Shown: positions 16,275 through 32,286 of the stretch, piece by piece
Position numbering within the stretch: position 1 is the stretch's first letter
How the letters are laid out: every line of letters begins with the position of its first letter
From: Thermoanaerobaculia bacterium
Lineage (GTDB): Bacteria > Acidobacteriota > Thermoanaerobaculia > UBA5066 > Gp7-AA6
Reading direction: 5' to 3'
Length of the DNA: 64,000 bases
Assembly: GCA_036505535.1 (NCBI GenBank)
Contig: DASXTI010000179.1
Span: forward strand, 4,688 to 68,687
The notes under the pieces: generated by a model
Databases searched by the model: none
What the model was told of the DNA's origin: nothing
The model's input: the letters and a program-made list of their open reading frames with translations, nothing else
Made by a program: the position numbers and the translations under genes

Positions 16275-17549
16275 ATGGATCCCCAAATGCTCCTCTATAT
16301 CTTCGCCTTCCTGCTCTCGCTTGCTTTCTCGGGCTTCTTCGCGGGCTCCGAGACGGCCCTCGTATCGCTCGGCCGGATCGAGCTCCAGCGGATGCGCGAA
16401 AAGGGGGACCGGCGCGGCGCACTGATCCGCATGCTGCGTGCGCATACATCGCGACTCCTCGCGGTCATCCTGATCGGCCAGAACCTATTCATGTCCGCGG
16501 CCTCCGCCTCCGCGACGAACCTGGCCACGGGCTGGTTCGGCCAGAAGTCAGGCTTCTTCGTGGCGGTTCTCTTCTCCACGATCACGCTGTTCGTCTTCGC
16601 CGAGATGATGCCGAAGTCCATCGGAGCCGCGTCTCCGGCCGCGGTCTCGCGGGCCGTCGTGATTCCGTTGTCCTGGATCATGAAGGTCCTCTCTCCCGTC
16701 GCCGAGGTCTGCGTGCGGTTGACCAGCCGCGTCCTCCGCGCCTTCGGCGTGCCCGAGGTGAGGCCGGCGTTGACCGAAGAGGAGTTAAAGAGCGTCTTCA
16801 ATCTGGGCGCGGACGAAGGGGTGATCCACCGCGAGGAGAGACAGCTCCTCCACAAGGTTCTCGAGTTCGGAGACAAGACCGTTCGGGACATCATGGTCCC
16901 GCGCACCAAGATTGTGGCCCTTCCCGAGACGGCGAGCTTCGCCGACGTGCGGGCGCTCCTTCACGAGCACAAGCTCTCCCGCCTCCCCGTTTACCGTGGC
17001 ACGCTGGACAACGTCGTGGGAGTTCTTCACGCCAAGGACCTGTTTGACCTCTCCGACGCGGAGGAGCAGGCCTTCGAGCTCGGCAAGTACTGTGATCCGC
17101 CCTTCCTGGTTCCGGAGTTCAAGCGCGCCGAAGATCTCTTCCGCGAGATGCGCCGCCGCCGGACGCACATGACGATCGTCGTGGACGAGCATGGAGGGAC
17201 GGCCGGCCTCGTGACGATCGAGGACGTCATCGAGGAGCTTCTGGGCCAGATCCAGGACGAGTACGACGAGGAGATGCCGGGCTTCGAGCCGGCCGGCGAG
17301 CGCGCCTACATGCTCGACGGCAGCTTTCGGTTGGACGACCTCGAGGAGCAGTTCGGGTTCCATCTGCCGCGGGACGAAGCCGAGACGATCGCGGGACATC
17401 TCATGCTCCGGTTCGGTCGGATTCCGCGCAAGGGAGAACGCTGGAAGGGACGCTTCGCCGACTTCGTGATCGAGGAAGCCACGCCGACCGCCATCAAGAG
17501 AGTGAAGATGACGCTGCCCGTGGCTTCCGAAAAGAGAGAGACCCCCTGA
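16275..17549 (+). CDS. Hemolysin-family/CNNM transporter (DUF21 membrane domain, CBS pair, CorC_HlyC domain)
   Basis: ORF 16275..17549. GSETALVSL, the CBS region (VRDIMVPRTKIVAL...), and HMTIVVDEHGGTAGLVTIEDVIEELLG. Confidence 0.88.
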   Translation: MDPQMLLYIFAFLLSLAFSGFFAGSETALVSLGRIELQRMREKGDRRGALIRMLRAHTSRLLAVILIGQNLFMSAASASATNLATGWFGQKSGFFVAVLFSTITLFVFAEMMPKSIGAASPAAVSRAVVIPLSWIMKVLSPVAEVCVRLTSRVLRAFGVPEVRPALTEEELKSVFNLGADEGVIHREERQLLHKVLEFGDKTVRDIMVPRTKIVALPETASFADVRALLHEHKLSRLPVYRGTLDNVVGVLHAKDLFDLSDAEEQAFELGKYCDPPFLVPEFKRAEDLFREMRRRRTHMTIVVDEHGGTAGLVTIEDVIEELLGQIQDEYDEEMPGFEPAGERAYMLDGSFRLDDLEEQFGFHLPRDEAETIAGHLMLRFGRIPRKGERWKGRFADFVIEEATPTAIKRVKMTLPVASEKRETP

Positions 17550-26840: not shown

Positions 26841-29531
26841 CTATGAGGCGGCCTGGCGCGGCGGCTCCGCTAGAAGATCTCTCACGGCTTCCGCCGCCGC
26901 CTTGAGCCCCGCCGCCAGGAGCTCCGCCTTCTTTCCCCCCGCCTGAGCGAGATCCGGTTTTCCTCCACCGCTTCCGCCCAAAGTCTTTCCAACGCGGGAG
27001 GCGATCCGCGACGCCGGAAGGCGGCCGGTCAGATCCGCCGTGACGGCGATGATCACCGAGGTCTTGCCTTCGCCTGCCGTCGCCACGATGACGACGCCGC
27101 TCTTGACCTTCGATCGCAACGTATCGGAGAGATTCCGCAGGTCCGGAATCGAGAGTCCCTCCACCACACGCGTCACGATCGGCACGCCGGCGACCTCGAT
27201 CCTTTCGGACGGCGTTCCGGCGTCGCCGGAGGCGAGCTTGAGCTTCAACGCGGCGACCTCGCGCTCGAGAGCCTTGAGGCGCTCCTCGCGCTCGTCCCAG
27301 CGCGCCGGAAGTGCTTCGCGCGGCGCCTGCGCCGCTCCGGAGAGGGCATTCAAGATCTGCTCATCCCGCGACAGCAGCTCGACGGCGCCAAGGGATGTCA
27401 CGGCCTCGATGCGTCTCTGGCCTGCGGCAATCGCGCGGTCCGAGACGATCTTGAAGGCGCCGATCTCGCCCGTGCGCGGGACGTGGCAGCCGCCGCAGAG
27501 CTCCGTCGAGAAACCCGGGACTTCGACTACGCGCACGCGCTCGCCGTACTTTTCGCCGAAGAACATGTCAGCGCCCCGACGCCGCGCTTCCTCCATCGGC
27601 AGGATCTCCTTGGTGACGGGCTGGTCTCGAAGGACTTCTTCGTTGACCAACCGCTCGATGTCGGCGAGCTGCTCGGAGGTGGGAGCAACCGCCGCAGCGT
27701 AGTCGAAGCGGAGCCGGTCCGGCGCGACGAGCGAGCCCATCTGCCTCGCCGAGGTTCCGAGCACCTTGCGCAGCGCGGCGTGAAGGAGGTGTGTCCCGGT
27801 GTGGTTCGCCTGCGTTCGGCGGCGAGTCCATTCGGGAACGGACATGTCGACGGCCATTCCCAGTTCGAGTCGGCCCCGCAGGATTCGAATGCGGTGCGCG
27901 ATCAGTTTCGAGATCGGCTTCTGAACGTCGATGACTTCCGCCTCGCCTCCGGCCCACCGCCAGACACCCGTGTCGGCAACTTGACCGCCCCCCTCCGGAT
28001 AGAAGACCGTCCGATCGGTGATCGCGTCGCCGGTTTCCCCTTCGGTGAGCGATGAAGCCTCGGCCCCGTTTGTCACGATGGCCAGCACCTGCGCCCCGGA
28101 CAGGGAGACGAAATCCTGCTCCGGGTAGCCGCGAAAGACCGAGTGCGGCGCCGGGAGCTCCAGCCGCTCGAAGACTCTCGCGTCGGCCGCCTCGAACTTC
28201 GTCGAGGCTCGCGAGGCGGCGCGCTGCCGTTCGAGGGCTTCCTCGAAGCCGGCCCGGTCGACGGCGACGCCTTCGTCGCCGGCGATCTCCTCGATCACCT
28301 CCAGCGGGATCCCGTAGGTATCATAGAAGCGGAAGATGGTCTCGCCCGAAAGAGCCGTCGCCCCTTCGCGCCGGAGGCGCTCGATCGCCTCGCCGACGCG
28401 GTCGGCCCCCTCCGAGAGCGTCTTGCCGAATCTCTCCTCTTCCCGCCTCAGCGCGCCGGCCACGCTCTCCTCGACACGCGGCGTCTCGGAAGGCTGGAAG
28501 TAGACGCCGGCGAAGCTCTCGACGACCGCCGGGACCAGCTGATACAGAAATGGCTGGGTGAGCCCGAGCCGGTGGCCGTAACGCATCGCGCGTCGAAGGA
28601 TCCGGCGCAGCACGTAGCCTCGTCCCTCGTTAGAAGGCAAGGCGCCGTCGGCGACGAGCATCGTCGCCGCGCGGGCGTGGTCCGCAATCACGCGAAAGGG
28701 TGCATCCTCGGGCGCCATCCCGCCCTTGTAGGGCTGGCCGGAAAGCTCCGCGAGCCGCGCCAGGATCGACGCGAAGAGGTCCGTGTCGAAATTGTTGTTG
28801 ACGCCCTGAAGAATCGCCGTCAGCCGTTCGAGGCCCGCGCCGGTGTCCACGGACGGCCGCGGCAGCGCCGCCATTCCGCCCGACGCGTCGCGCTCGTATT
28901 GCATGAACACGAGGTTCCAGATTTCCAGCGTGTCATCGCCGGGGCCATTGACTTTGTCGACCGAGTTTTGCGAGGGGCTCGTCGGATCGGGGCCGCGGTA
29001 GTAGTGGATCTCGGAGCAGGGGCCGCACGGCCCCGTGTCCCCCATGGCCCAGAAGTTCTCCTTTTCCCCAAAGCGCAAGATGCGGGCCTTGGGCAGATAC
29101 CTTTCCCAGAGCCGGTAGGCCTCATCGTCCTCGGCGTACACCGTGGCCCAAAGCCGTTCGGGGTCGAGGCCGTAGCCGCTCTGTTCATCCGTGACCAGCT
29201 CCCAGGCGAACCGGGTCGCCTCATCCTTGAAGTAATCGCCGAAGGAGAAGTTGCCGAGCATTTCGAAAAACGTGTGGTGGCGCCCCGTGTAGCCGACGTT
29301 GTCGAGGTCGTTATGCTTGCCGCCGGCGCGCACGCATTTCTGGACGGTCGTCGCGCGCGTGTAGTCCCGCTTTTCGCGGCCGGTGAATACGTCCTTGAAC
29401 TGATTCATGCCGGCATTGGCGAAGAGCAGGGTAGGATCCTCGGCCGGAATCAGGGAGGAGGAGGGGACGCGGCGGTGCCCCTGCCCCTCGAAATATCGAA
29501 GGAATCTCTCCCGGACCTCAGTCGACCTCAT
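26841..29531 (-). CDS. alaS: Alanine--tRNA ligase
   Basis: ORF 26841..29531, 896 aa. Full-length AlaRS similarity (FANAGMNQFK, editing-domain HTGTHLLH, C-terminal DHHA1). Confidence 0.97.
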   Translation of the reverse strand: MRSTEVRERFLRYFEGQGHRRVPSSSLIPAEDPTLLFANAGMNQFKDVFTGREKRDYTRATTVQKCVRAGGKHNDLDNVGYTGRHHTFFEMLGNFSFGDYFKDEATRFAWELVTDEQSGYGLDPERLWATVYAEDDEAYRLWERYLPKARILRFGEKENFWAMGDTGPCGPCSEIHYYRGPDPTSPSQNSVDKVNGPGDDTLEIWNLVFMQYERDASGGMAALPRPSVDTGAGLERLTAILQGVNNNFDTDLFASILARLAELSGQPYKGGMAPEDAPFRVIADHARAATMLVADGALPSNEGRGYVLRRILRRAMRYGHRLGLTQPFLYQLVPAVVESFAGVYFQPSETPRVEESVAGALRREEERFGKTLSEGADRVGEAIERLRREGATALSGETIFRFYDTYGIPLEVIEEIAGDEGVAVDRAGFEEALERQRAASRASTKFEAADARVFERLELPAPHSVFRGYPEQDFVSLSGAQVLAIVTNGAEASSLTEGETGDAITDRTVFYPEGGGQVADTGVWRWAGGEAEVIDVQKPISKLIAHRIRILRGRLELGMAVDMSVPEWTRRRTQANHTGTHLLHAALRKVLGTSARQMGSLVAPDRLRFDYAAAVAPTSEQLADIERLVNEEVLRDQPVTKEILPMEEARRRGADMFFGEKYGERVRVVEVPGFSTELCGGCHVPRTGEIGAFKIVSDRAIAAGQRRIEAVTSLGAVELLSRDEQILNALSGAAQAPREALPARWDEREERLKALEREVAALKLKLASGDAGTPSERIEVAGVPIVTRVVEGLSIPDLRNLSDTLRSKVKSGVVIVATAGEGKTSVIIAVTADLTGRLPASRIASRVGKTLGGSGGGKPDLAQAGGKKAELLAAGLKAAAEAVRDLLAEPPRQAAS

Positions 29532-29796
29532 ACCAGCTCCGGATGATCTCAGAAATCTTCTCCGCCCGAAAACCGCGCCGGGTCAGCGCATCGAATACCC
29601 GTCGGCGACGGAGCGGCGGCGCAAGATTCGACCGCGCGCTCCAGAGCCTCTCAAACGCGCGGCGGAGCGCCTCCTCTTCCCGTTCGTTTGCTCCTTCCGC
29701 CGCGAGGGCCTCCGCGATCGTCTCGCGTCCGAAACCCCGAGCCTTCAGCTCCCGTTCCACGCGGGAGCGCCCGTACCGCGCTCCTCGCGAGCGCAC
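29518..29796 (-). CDS. recX: Recombination regulator RecX (canonical-start ORF only; RecX-like sequence continues upstream in frame to 30009)
   Basis: ORF 29518..29796 (GTG). RecX repeats 2-3, and it overlaps the alaS start as in many bacteria. The 71 codons upstream (29797-30009) encode RecX repeat 1 (ARERALRLLAIRPRGRAELNRALVDRGF) but contain no ATG/GTG/TTG. Confidence 0.75.
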   Translation of the reverse strand: MRSRGARYGRSRVERELKARGFGRETIAEALAAEGANEREEEALRRAFERLWSARSNLAPPLRRRRVFDALTRRGFRAEKISEIIRSWYEVD

Positions 29797-30009
29797 CGCC
29801 GAGCGCGCCGCCGAAAGGTCGTCCAGCCAGCCTTCCCGCTCCAGGCGTTCCAGGGCCTCTCCGACCGCGCTCGGATCGAAGCCCCGATCGACGAGCGCGC
29901 GGTTGAGCTCTGCGCGCCCCCGCGGCCGAATCGCGAGAAGGCGAAGGGCCCGCTCCCGCGCGCCCTCGACGGACGCGGGCTCAGCGGGAGGAGAAGAGCG
30001 CCGCGCCGT

Positions 30010-31200
30010 CTAGCTGCGCCCCGGAGGGAGCTGATTGGAGAAGTCGAACGGGGACTCTTCCCCAAGCGGATTGAAGTCGGACGGCACCTCGAGCGAAGCG
30101 TCCATCTCTTCGCGCGCGACGTCCGAGGTCGACTGGATTCCCTGAATCTTGAGCTTGAACTCGTTGGGGTTCGTCGCACGCTTGAGCGCCTCTTCCAGCG
30201 TGATCAGGCCCGACTTGTAGAGGCTGTAGAGGGACTGGTCGAAGGTCTGCATGCCGTACTGCGAGGTGCCCTGCTGAATGGCGTCCTTGATGTATTTGGT
30301 TTTTTCCTTGTTCTCGATGCATTCCCGGACGTAATTGGTCCGGATCAGCACCTCGGCCGCCGGCACGCGGCCGAGTCCGTCCGCGCGCGGCATCAGGCGA
30401 AGTGAAATGACCGACTTCAAGACGGCGCCGAGCTGTAAGCGGATCTGCTTCTGCTGGTGGGGCGGGAAAACGGCGATGATTCGATTGATCGTCTCAGTCG
30501 CATCGAGGGTATGGAGCGTGGAGAAGACGAGATGGCCCGTTTCCGCGGCGGTCAAGGCCGTTTCGATCGTCTCGTAGTCCCGCATCTCGCCGACGAGGAT
30601 GACGTCGGGGTCCTGGCGCAGCGCGCTTCGCAGTGCCAGCGAGAAGCCCTTGGTGTCCACGTCGACCTCGCGCTGGTTCACGATCGACTTCTTGTCGCGA
30701 TGGAGAAACTCGATCGGGTCTTCGATCGTCATGATGTGCTCGTTGCGTGTCGAGTTGATCTGGTCGACCATCGCCGCGAGCGTGGTGGACTTGCCCGAAC
30801 CGGTCGTTCCGGTGCAGAGCACCAGCCCGCGCTGTTCCTGGCAGATCTTCTCGAGCACCGGCGGGAGCAAGAGGTCCTTGATGCTCAGAATCCGGGCAGG
30901 AATGACGCGTAGCACGAGGCCCACCGTGCCGCGCTGCTGGAAGATGTTGCAACGAAAACGCCCGAGGTTCGGTACGTTGTAGGCGATGTCGATCTCGAAG
31001 TTGTTCTTGAATTTTTCCTTCTGGCGGGCCGACATGATCGAAAAGGCCATCGCGATCGTGTCTTCCTGCATGAGACGACGCATGTCGGCGAGCGGAATGA
31101 GCGTTCCGTCGACGCGAATGACGGGAAAAGCACCGACTTTCAGGTGCAGGTCGGACGCTTTCCGCTCGACCGCAATCTTCAGCAGATCGTTGATATGCAT
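30010..31200 (-). CDS. pilT: Type IV pilus retraction (twitching motility) ATPase PilT
   Basis: ORF 30010..31200. Walker A GTTGSGKST, Asp box, Walker B ILVGEMRD, His box TGHLVFSTLHT, and the PilT-specific AIxxxLxQ-type helix region. Confidence 0.92.
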   Translation of the reverse strand: MHINDLLKIAVERKASDLHLKVGAFPVIRVDGTLIPLADMRRLMQEDTIAMAFSIMSARQKEKFKNNFEIDIAYNVPNLGRFRCNIFQQRGTVGLVLRVIPARILSIKDLLLPPVLEKICQEQRGLVLCTGTTGSGKSTTLAAMVDQINSTRNEHIMTIEDPIEFLHRDKKSIVNQREVDVDTKGFSLALRSALRQDPDVILVGEMRDYETIETALTAAETGHLVFSTLHTLDATETINRIIAVFPPHQQKQIRLQLGAVLKSVISLRLMPRADGLGRVPAAEVLIRTNYVRECIENKEKTKYIKDAIQQGTSQYGMQTFDQSLYSLYKSGLITLEEALKRATNPNEFKLKIQGIQSTSDVAREEMDASLEVPSDFNPLGEESPFDFSNQLPPGRS

Positions 31201-31327
31201 GGTTTTGTTTTCCTCGGTTGGCGGCTAGCTTACGCCCCTTGCCGAATGATTGGAAGACCTCGGTCGCCGATCGTCGGTGTCGTGTGGCGCGGCAGCGATG
31301 CTTCTAAGTGGCTGGACCGTAAGACGT

Positions 31328-31346
31328 AAGAGTGAGATCCACTCTT
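31328..31346 (-). terminator. Weak terminator-like hairpin just downstream of ilvE
   Basis: AAGAGTG/CACTCTT 7-bp stem directly after the ilvE stop. No clear U-tract. Confidence 0.25.
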
Positions 31347-31347
31347 C

Positions 31348-32286
31348 TCAGACACGGGCTTCGACCGGCAGCGCCGTCAGCCATCCACGGCGATCTTCCG
31401 CCTCGCCGCGAACGAGCGCGAAGAATTCTTTCTGGAGCCTCTCGGTGATCGGACCGCGACGGCCTCCACCGACCACGATGCGGTCGACCGATCGGATCGG
31501 CGTGATCTCGGCCGCGGTTCCGGTGAAGAAGACCTCGTCGGCGATGTAGAGCATCTCGCGGGCGATCTGCTGCTCGACGACGGTATATCCGGCGTCTCTG
31601 GCCAGGCACATGATCGAGTCACGCGTGATACCCGGCAAGATCGTGCCGGCCAACGGCGGTGTCAGAATCCGGCCCCCGTAGACGATGAAGATGTTCTCGC
31701 CGCTTCCCTCCGAGATCCGCCCGCCGTTGTCCAGAGCGATCCCCTCCGTGAAGCCGTTGACGATCGCCTCCATCTTGATCAGCGCGGAGTTCAAATAGTT
31801 GCCGGTCGCCTTGGCCATGGCCGGGAAAGTATTGGGCGCCATGCGGTTCCACGAGGACACGCAGACGTCGACGCCGCCTTCCAGAGCCTCCTCGCCCAGG
31901 TAATTTCCCCACCGCCACACCGCGATCATCACCTCGACGGGGCTATGGAAGGGGTTCACCCCGAGCGCTCCCAAGCCGCGGTAGACGACCGGGCGGATAT
32001 AGCACTCCTCGAAGCCATTGGCGCGAATCGTCTCGAAGACCGCATCGCGAAAATCCTTGGGCGAATAGGGAATCTCCATCCGGTAGACCTTGCAGGAGTC
32101 ATAGAGCCGCTTGATGTGCTCGTCGATACGAAAAGCCGCAGGACCGCTCTTCGTCCTGTAGACACGGGCCCCTTCGAACATCGCCGAGCCGTAGTGAAAG
32201 ACGTGAGAGAAAGCATGGATCTTCGCGTCGGCGAAGTCCACGAGCCGGCCGTTCATCCAGACTTTCTTGACGTCCTCGTAGGACAT
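31348..32286 (-). CDS. ilvE: Branched-chain amino acid aminotransferase
   Basis: ORF 31348..32352 trimmed to ATG 32286 ([24 protein letters not shown]...). Fold-type IV PLP enzyme motifs (EGIRAY-like [16 protein letters not shown]). Confidence 0.92.

Follow-up and report, generated by a model that had tools for sequence, protein, structure and literature searches.

We analysed a stretch of 64,000 nucleotides (nt) from a Thermoanaerobaculia bacterium (contig DASXTI010000179.1), referred to here as the window and used for all coordinates that carry no contig name, and in it the locus of pilT, recX and alaS, three genes that are encoded on the minus strand in this order. The source assembly is a soil metagenome bin of 258 contigs, 87% complete. 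RecX blocks the growth of RecA filaments, and binding and capping of such filaments is the putative function of the RecX encoded here; recA is present in the genome, on a separate contig (C79) and without a recX after it. The recX frame has none of the canonical starts ATG, GTG and TTG ahead of its first domain, and our analysis concerns the codon at which its translation would begin. The features of the locus are as follows.

31200..30010, minus strand: pilT, 396 amino acids, from the list of open reading frames
30019..30022, minus strand: GGGG run, weakly Shine-Dalgarno-like, in the last pilT codons and 9 nt upstream of ACG
30009-30007, minus strand: ACG, the proposed recX initiation codon, abutting the pilT TAG with a gap of 0 nt
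29518..30009, minus strand: proposed recX coding sequence, 163 codons and the stop TGA 29520-29518
29842..29961, minus strand: RecX_HTH1, residues 17-56 (PF21982, E 1.3e-15, profile positions 1-40 of 40)
29796-29794, minus strand: GTG, the first canonical start in the recX frame, which would give 92 amino acids
29704..29823, minus strand: RecX_HTH2, residues 63-102 (PF02631), interrupted by GTG 29796
29542..29679, minus strand: RecX_HTH3, residues 111-156 (PF21981, E 3.4e-09)
29531-29529, minus strand: alaS ATG, in a 14-nt overlap with the end of recX and with GGAG 6 nt upstream, within recX

The pilT product is a type IV pilus retraction ATPase by its match to Pfam T2SSE (PF00437, residues 3-274, E 8.6e-44), a match that alone does not separate PilT from PilU or other paralogues, and its C-terminal tail, ending in ...FDFSNQLPPGRS, is followed by the stop codon TAG 30012-30010. 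Read from the ACG that comes next, the translated recX frame begins with threonine followed by ARRSSPPAEPASVEGAR, and neither the list of open reading frames nor the translation holds an ATG, GTG or TTG in the 71 codons ahead of GTG 29796. An earlier note on this DNA had placed the pilT TAG in frame with recX and had quoted the translation of the startless stretch; the coordinates were confirmed on the sequence and on the list of open reading frames, and the translation proved identical letter for letter. The same note had taken the stretch for genuine RecX repeat 1, in agreement with the Pfam result, in which RecX_HTH1 is located entirely within the stretch and is matched over its full profile. 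In the 163-amino-acid frame HTH1, HTH2 and HTH3 each exceed the curated Pfam cut-offs, the three-domain composition in a protein of about 150-170 amino acids by which RecX was recognised, and the 92-amino-acid product of GTG 29796 is indeed incomplete: it lacks HTH1 altogether, of HTH2 it retains only profile positions 13-42, the first 12 being lost, and it had no exact match in the protein collection. As HTH1 lies upstream of the first canonical start, translation must begin no more than 16 codons after the pilT stop. A genome search found recX in a single copy, and the gene order pilT-recX-alaS, without recA at the locus, had been described correctly. A consensus scan of 29300-31500, which provides weak evidence, found no promoter- or terminator-like site; with none between pilT and alaS, the three genes are therefore probably co-transcribed.

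Searching the genus yielded recX matches in 43 of 44 genomes, and the pilT-recX junction was read in 34 of them, the window's own genome included; counts across these relatives, all of them uncultured, are not independent. All 34 carry an intact RecX frame of 162-171 codons and lack any canonical start from the upstream stop as far as HTH1, so that the alignment of related junctions, a check which the earlier note had proposed, brought no normal start to light. A single startless stretch of 71 codons is unremarkable, its chance being about 4% (a rough estimate from about 4.5% start-type codons per position); its recurrence in 34 of 34 genomes far exceeds chance. The ratio of nonsynonymous to synonymous substitution rates (dN/dS), computed pairwise within the genus, was 0.36 over residues 2-71, 0.41 over the 16 residues preceding HTH1 and 0.24 over residues 72-163, at a median synonymous rate (dS) of 0.74-1.05 in recX, where synonymous sites are near saturation. 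The startless part, at 0.36, is therefore translated and under purifying selection, and the relaxed constraint which the earlier note had named as a mark of pseudogenisation was not observed. A sequencing or assembly error, or a recX gene decaying into a pseudogene, would not surprise in a bin as fragmented and incomplete as this one, and both had been offered as options before. The same arrangement is however shared by 34 independent species-level assemblies, the frames are intact everywhere at dN/dS values of 0.24-0.41, and this recX is the only copy in its genome, which leaves error and decay with practically no probability.

The same comparison bears on a start inside the gene, either at GTG 29796, with a product of 92 amino acids, or at an internal near-cognate codon such as ATT 29931-29929, everything upstream being then untranslated or vestigial. 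GTG 29796 is the sole canonical start, and a gene finder limited to ATG, GTG and TTG calls nothing longer. Yet the 71 codons upstream of it evolve under the constraint given above and encode the full RecX_HTH1, while the alignment column of this GTG (column 78) reads GTG in merely 18 of the 34 genomes, with GTC in 9 and GTT in 3, and GTG 29796 is therefore not a conserved start. The ATT lies within helix 1 of HTH1, in a column occupied by V, I, M, A or L, and is not conserved either. We consider an internal start very unlikely.

What all 34 genus loci do share is the ACG, invariant at all three bases, situated 20-25 codons ahead of the L in the ALRLL motif and in each genome the sole one-base neighbour of ATG between the pilT stop and HTH1. 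The aligner split the ACG rows over two columns (29 and 5 rows), and for this reason the codon stands outside the list of conserved columns, defined by the same residue in at least 30 of 34 rows; each of the rows reads ACG. Another conserved threonine column of the same alignment is written ACG in 20 rows, ACC in 12 and ACA in 1, and of the columns on that list with fourfold or sixfold degeneracy, TCT alone occurs in 34 of 34 rows, in the block before the alaS start. The bases that flank ACG vary on either side. Upstream of it the length (0-12 nt), the frame and the sequence of the spacer that follows the pilT stop are all variable, and downstream the conservation is of the protein type (PP..P..S): 33 of 34 rows agree in the residue at two proline columns and one serine column, each of which uses 2-4 synonymous codons.

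The block before alaS is a separate matter. In the last ~24 codons of recX (29518-29590, minus strand), directly upstream of the alaS ATG 29531, synonymous sites are nearly invariant over the 34 genomes (GGT 32/34, TTT 32/34, ATT 30/34, TCT 34/34, ATC 33/34, CGG 30/33, GAA 30/31), and the codon choices are AT-rich and atypical of the genome. This block is probably a ribosome-binding or regulatory region of alaS inside recX.

At the other end of the gene, the pilT stop directly abuts ACG in 19 of the 34 genomes. Fourteen others have spacers of 2, 3, 4, 5, 6, 6, 6, 7, 7, 9, 9, 9, 9 and 12 nt without a common sequence; five of these spacers (2, 4, 5, 7 and 7 nt) are out of frame and nine are in frame. 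An identical 7-nt spacer was found in two independent assemblies of related species. The stop codon itself is TAG in 25 genomes, TAA in 8 and TGA in none. At one locus (L063, G091:C8) the pilT stop is missing at the expected place (GGGCGCGCTAGACC), probably through a one-base assembly indel in this long-read bin of 73% estimated completeness.

The earlier note had proposed that the TAG might be read through, and a programmed read-through of the pilT stop, yielding a PilT-RecX fusion in which recX has no start of its own, would accord with a stop that is in frame with and abuts the RecX frame in the window and in 19 of the 34 genomes, as well as with the nine in-frame spacers. The five out-of-frame spacers argue against it, as the downstream phase is not kept, and in the other genera of the family the frames vary freely, many being out of frame. 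Moreover, pilT ends with TAA, the strongest terminator, in 8 genomes and in none with TGA, the leaky one; the 41 tRNAs detected in the 87%-complete assembly include no suppressor with the anticodon CUA or UUA; and a fusion leaves the invariant third base of ACG unexplained wherever a spacer parts it from the stop. The excess of in-frame spacers is what would be expected if zero spacing is ancestral. We therefore hold a fusion to be highly improbable. The in-frame link between pilT and recX, true of the window, is not conserved and results from the position of ACG directly after the stop.

The comparison was extended to the remaining 11 genera of the family by junctions from 54 genomes, for a total of 88 family loci. 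At the aligned position these loci carry ACG (51), GTG (22), ATC (9), TTG (4) and ATG (1), with one locus unassigned. Within genus g19 the distance to the motif is 19 codons at each of the 6 loci with ACG and 19-20 codons at the 7 loci with ATC; in genus g21 ACG, ATC and GTG were all found at the recX start position. Every codon of the series is at most one base away from ATG, as would be expected if the initiator tRNA reads this site, and the pattern is hard to explain otherwise. That ATG occurs just once among the 88 loci suggests that weak starts have been selected for. In a RecX tree built from HTH1 onward, with the start region excluded and with families f2 and f3 as the root, almost all of the major branches include ACG, and no fewer than 12 state changes have to be assumed; for a short protein and a quick search only the broad picture of this tree is to be trusted. 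ACG has therefore been kept for a long time.

Related families offer parallels. In family f3 the RecX protein opens with (M or V)-T-A-x-R-R. In genus g8 of the sister family f2, the position homologous to the recX start is occupied by either GTG or CTG: at the CTG loci (L041, L044, L051) the codon lies 12 nt past the pilT stop, and at the GTG loci (L048, L050, L053-L055) the recX frame is open far upstream and a nearby pilT stop was not seen. This resembles the pattern in the window's family, with the weak codon near the pilT stop.

The family series also bears on RNA editing. The invariance of ACG in the genus would be expected of an editing site, at which C-to-U editing of the mRNA turns ACG into AUG as in plant organelles, where edited ACG starts are well known from chloroplasts and mitochondria (e.g. 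PMC12548569). The sister lineages with ATC at the same position argue against this, as C-to-U editing does not convert ATC to AUG, and near-cognate initiation is therefore needed there anyway. We know of no C-to-U mRNA editing system described in bacteria. The DYW deaminase (PF14432) was not found in the genome in a search that was weak, the control genomes being empty too. Editing thus appears extremely unlikely.

The sequence around the junction was also inspected for signals of ribosome binding. A G-rich run (GGGG, or GGGAAG with an AGA arginine codon) is present in most genus loci at the same distance from ACG as the GGGG 30019..30022 of the window, TAGGG being also among the runs, and the duplex energies to the anti-Shine-Dalgarno sequence CACCUCCU reach only -3 to -6 kcal/mol; the run is only suggestive of a Shine-Dalgarno-like element. 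Across the family, the gap between the pilT stop and the start measures 0-54 nt where the start is ACG and 2-45 nt where it is ATC, and in g20, the sole genus in which gaps are long (26-183 nt), the start is GTG throughout. Short gaps combined with weak codons are consistent with initiation by ribosomes directly after their termination on pilT.

The upstream gene is likewise a constant of the family. At 78 of 87 family loci tested, recX is immediately preceded by a gene with an FDFS(N/R)Q-type tail, and most of the other 9 have the same tail in a variant spelling, e.g. YDFS. In the window this tail belongs to a C-terminal extension of PilT of ~45 residues (30013-30150, minus strand), ending in ...SPFDFS(N/R)Q-PPGR, which is conserved in most of the family and recurs at many family f2 loci. 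Its last glycine is encoded by GGG or GGA in ~30 of the 34 genus genomes, the commonest glycine codon genome-wide being GGC, and this bias suggests that the tail has a dual role in coding and in ribosome binding. In other genera of the family, pilT-recX spacers consist of tandem 7-nt units, purine- and G-rich, that end a few bases before ACG: TAGACGG three times in L096 (G140), ACGGGAA four times in L136 (G152) and GGGAC[TA]C in L100 and L101, L121 being also among the loci with a spacer built of such heptads. Heptad repeats of this kind also follow stop codons at other places in the window's genome.

In sum, recX is intact and under selection, it has no canonical start, its ACG is invariant in the genus, and relatives have other start-type codons in its place. 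From these comparisons we consider it quite likely that recX is a complete and functional gene of 163 codons with ACG 30009-30007 as its initiation codon, and probable that ACG is a genuine and long-maintained bacterial initiation codon, used for recX family-wide and exchanging with ATC, GTG, TTG and ATG only. Initiation or re-initiation at the ACG after the TAG had been one of four options in the earlier note and is the one that the comparative data back. We infer actual initiation at ACG, methionine as the first residue, dependence on pilT and low dosage as the purpose of the arrangement. A single transcript would carry pilT, recX and alaS, and ribosomes ending at the pilT stop would already be on the ACG or, within the genus, up to 12 nt from it. 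The weak G-rich run in the last pilT codons may retain these ribosomes, of which a small share would re-initiate at ACG by means of the initiator tRNA despite the mismatch at the middle base. The output of RecX would thereby be a small fixed fraction of the output of PilT, and such a low output would suit an inhibitor of RecA filaments that is kept scarce by other means elsewhere.

To our knowledge, ACG is not among the start codons of NCBI table 11, and it was reportedly grouped by Sussman and co-workers in 1996 with CUG, AUU, AUC and AUA as codons that IF3 represses. In E. coli reporters ACG does initiate, with N-terminal methionine, its codon group reaching ~0.1-1% of AUG (Hecht et al., bioRxiv 10.1101/063800), and the annotated starts of model bacterial genomes comprise ATG, GTG, TTG, CTG, ATT, ATC and ATA only (bioRxiv 10.1101/063800). 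A full-text literature search, in which the coverage of subscription journals was incomplete, found no natural bacterial gene with an ACG start among the papers listed; the ACG starts in these papers were organelle, viral, eukaryotic and engineered cases only. An ACG-initiated recX would thus be a natural bacterial gene family outside the start set of table 11.

Several observations weigh against initiation at ACG. ACG initiates very poorly in E. coli, the Shine-Dalgarno-like element varies across loci and is weak, and the link between gap and codon is drawn from a small number of independent clades. A search of the 87%-complete assembly did not find the initiator tRNA: two CAU tRNAs were detected, both without the initiator 1:72 mismatch; the true initiator tRNA seems to be unassembled. 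The tRNA-Thr(CGU), considered as a special initiator, proved to be an ordinary elongator. Furthermore, a canonical start directly precedes ACG at several family loci, as GTG-ACG in L105 and L132 and as TTG-ACG in L123, so that a threonine, or ACG itself, at position 2 may matter, and the ACG of the genus could descend from a conserved second codon for threonine and not from a start. Such a descent would explain part of the ACG conservation but not the absence of another start. More broadly, ACG may be kept as a signal of another kind, for RNA processing or binding, or for a required threonine, with RecX synthesis beginning otherwise. This we regard as unlikely, given that the flanking bases are free to vary on both sides without any extended motif, and that a start would still be required for which no alternative candidate is conserved.

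Initiation at ACG would not stand alone in this genome as a departure from the canonical starts. The genome was screened for coding stretches without a canonical start by means of a codon log-likelihood model of low power, in which recX itself scored 11.6, below the strict filter. The screen yielded 17 strict and 41 relaxed candidates, among them 3 TGA selenocysteine sites and 5 validated CTG, ATT or ATC starts, and no second ACG start was found at this low power. In each of the five genes with validated starts, the first ATG, GTG or TTG comes only after a Pfam domain has begun.

17546-17549, plus strand: Iso_dh (isocitrate/isopropylmalate dehydrogenase), CTG start overlapping the upstream TGA as CTGA
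C62:30239-30904: pth, CTG start
C29:2593-3129: ECF sigma factor, CTG start five bases after GGAGG
C123:13379-14170: lgt, ATT start six bases after GGAGGGA
C117: infC, ATC start

In Iso_dh, profile position 2 corresponds to residue 7 counted from CTG 17546, the first canonical start (TTG) comes 26 codons later, and the CTG is preceded by a GAGAGAG run; it looks like a start coupled to the upstream stop. The infC gene present in the genome is of the autoregulated type. Judging by the positions of these domains, this organism employs near-cognate initiation regularly; such starts seem to be unusually frequent in the lineage, and their use for several housekeeping genes hints at start-codon selection that is relaxed or exploited lineage-wide. 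The three genes with in-frame TGA are a separate class, in which TGA occupies catalytic cysteine sites: a peroxiredoxin (FYPKADTPG-U-TLEGC; G000:C117:386-691, minus strand), a SelD-like protein (SAG-U-ACKIGQ; G000:C113:39556-40596, plus strand) and a member of the AhpD/CMD family (NACHY-U-TRSH; G000:C163:21025-21327, plus strand). Pfam domains cross the TGA in two of the three genes, the genome has a tRNA-Sec, and all three are probable selenoproteins.

The proposed recX start may be compared with known systems. Like the AUU starts of infC and pcnB in E. coli and the CUG, AUC and AUA starts of table 11, it is a neighbour of AUG at a fixed position, conserved in orthologues, and the weak initiation by which such non-canonical starts keep a protein scarce or autoregulated is proposed here for recX as well; unlike them, ACG mismatches at the middle base and lies outside the annotated start set. 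With termination-reinitiation coupling (ATGA or TAATG overlaps, 70S scanning) the locus shares a stop-to-start distance of 0-12 nt within one transcription unit, and the CTGA at 17546-17549 in the window is a junction analogous to such overlaps. It differs in that the restart codon is ACG and the junction is an abutting TAG|ACG, the dependence on pilT being putative. In E. coli recX is expressed by read-through of a terminator after recA, and recX is there, as here, followed by alaS. In mycobacteria an overlap of recA with recX keeps RecX scarce (PMC3062782). As in these recA-recX operons, recX would here be distal, weakly expressed and limited in dosage relative to the upstream gene, but its upstream partner is pilT and the throttle would act at translation initiation instead of transcription termination. 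The ACG starts of plant organelles (edited), of AAV VP2 and of Sendai C' resemble the one proposed for recX in initiation position and low protein ratio and belong to different translation systems, editing being unlikely here.

If ACG initiates recX, the natural set of bacterial start codons exceeds the seven of NCBI table 11, and a codon outside the accepted set would have been conserved across a whole family. Gene finders limited to ATG, GTG and TTG recover at most a 92-amino-acid fragment, so that recX, and probably other genes of these soil Acidobacteria as well, may be truncated or missed in public annotation. The natural substitution of ACG, ATC, GTG, TTG and ATG at one site would make the strength of the start measurable against the balance of RecX and RecA. 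The family may have found a different solution to keeping an inhibitor of RecA scarce, in which recX is joined to pilT and not to recA, and, more speculatively, the link to pilT may couple the regulation of recombination to type IV pili, the machinery by which naturally transformable bacteria take up DNA.

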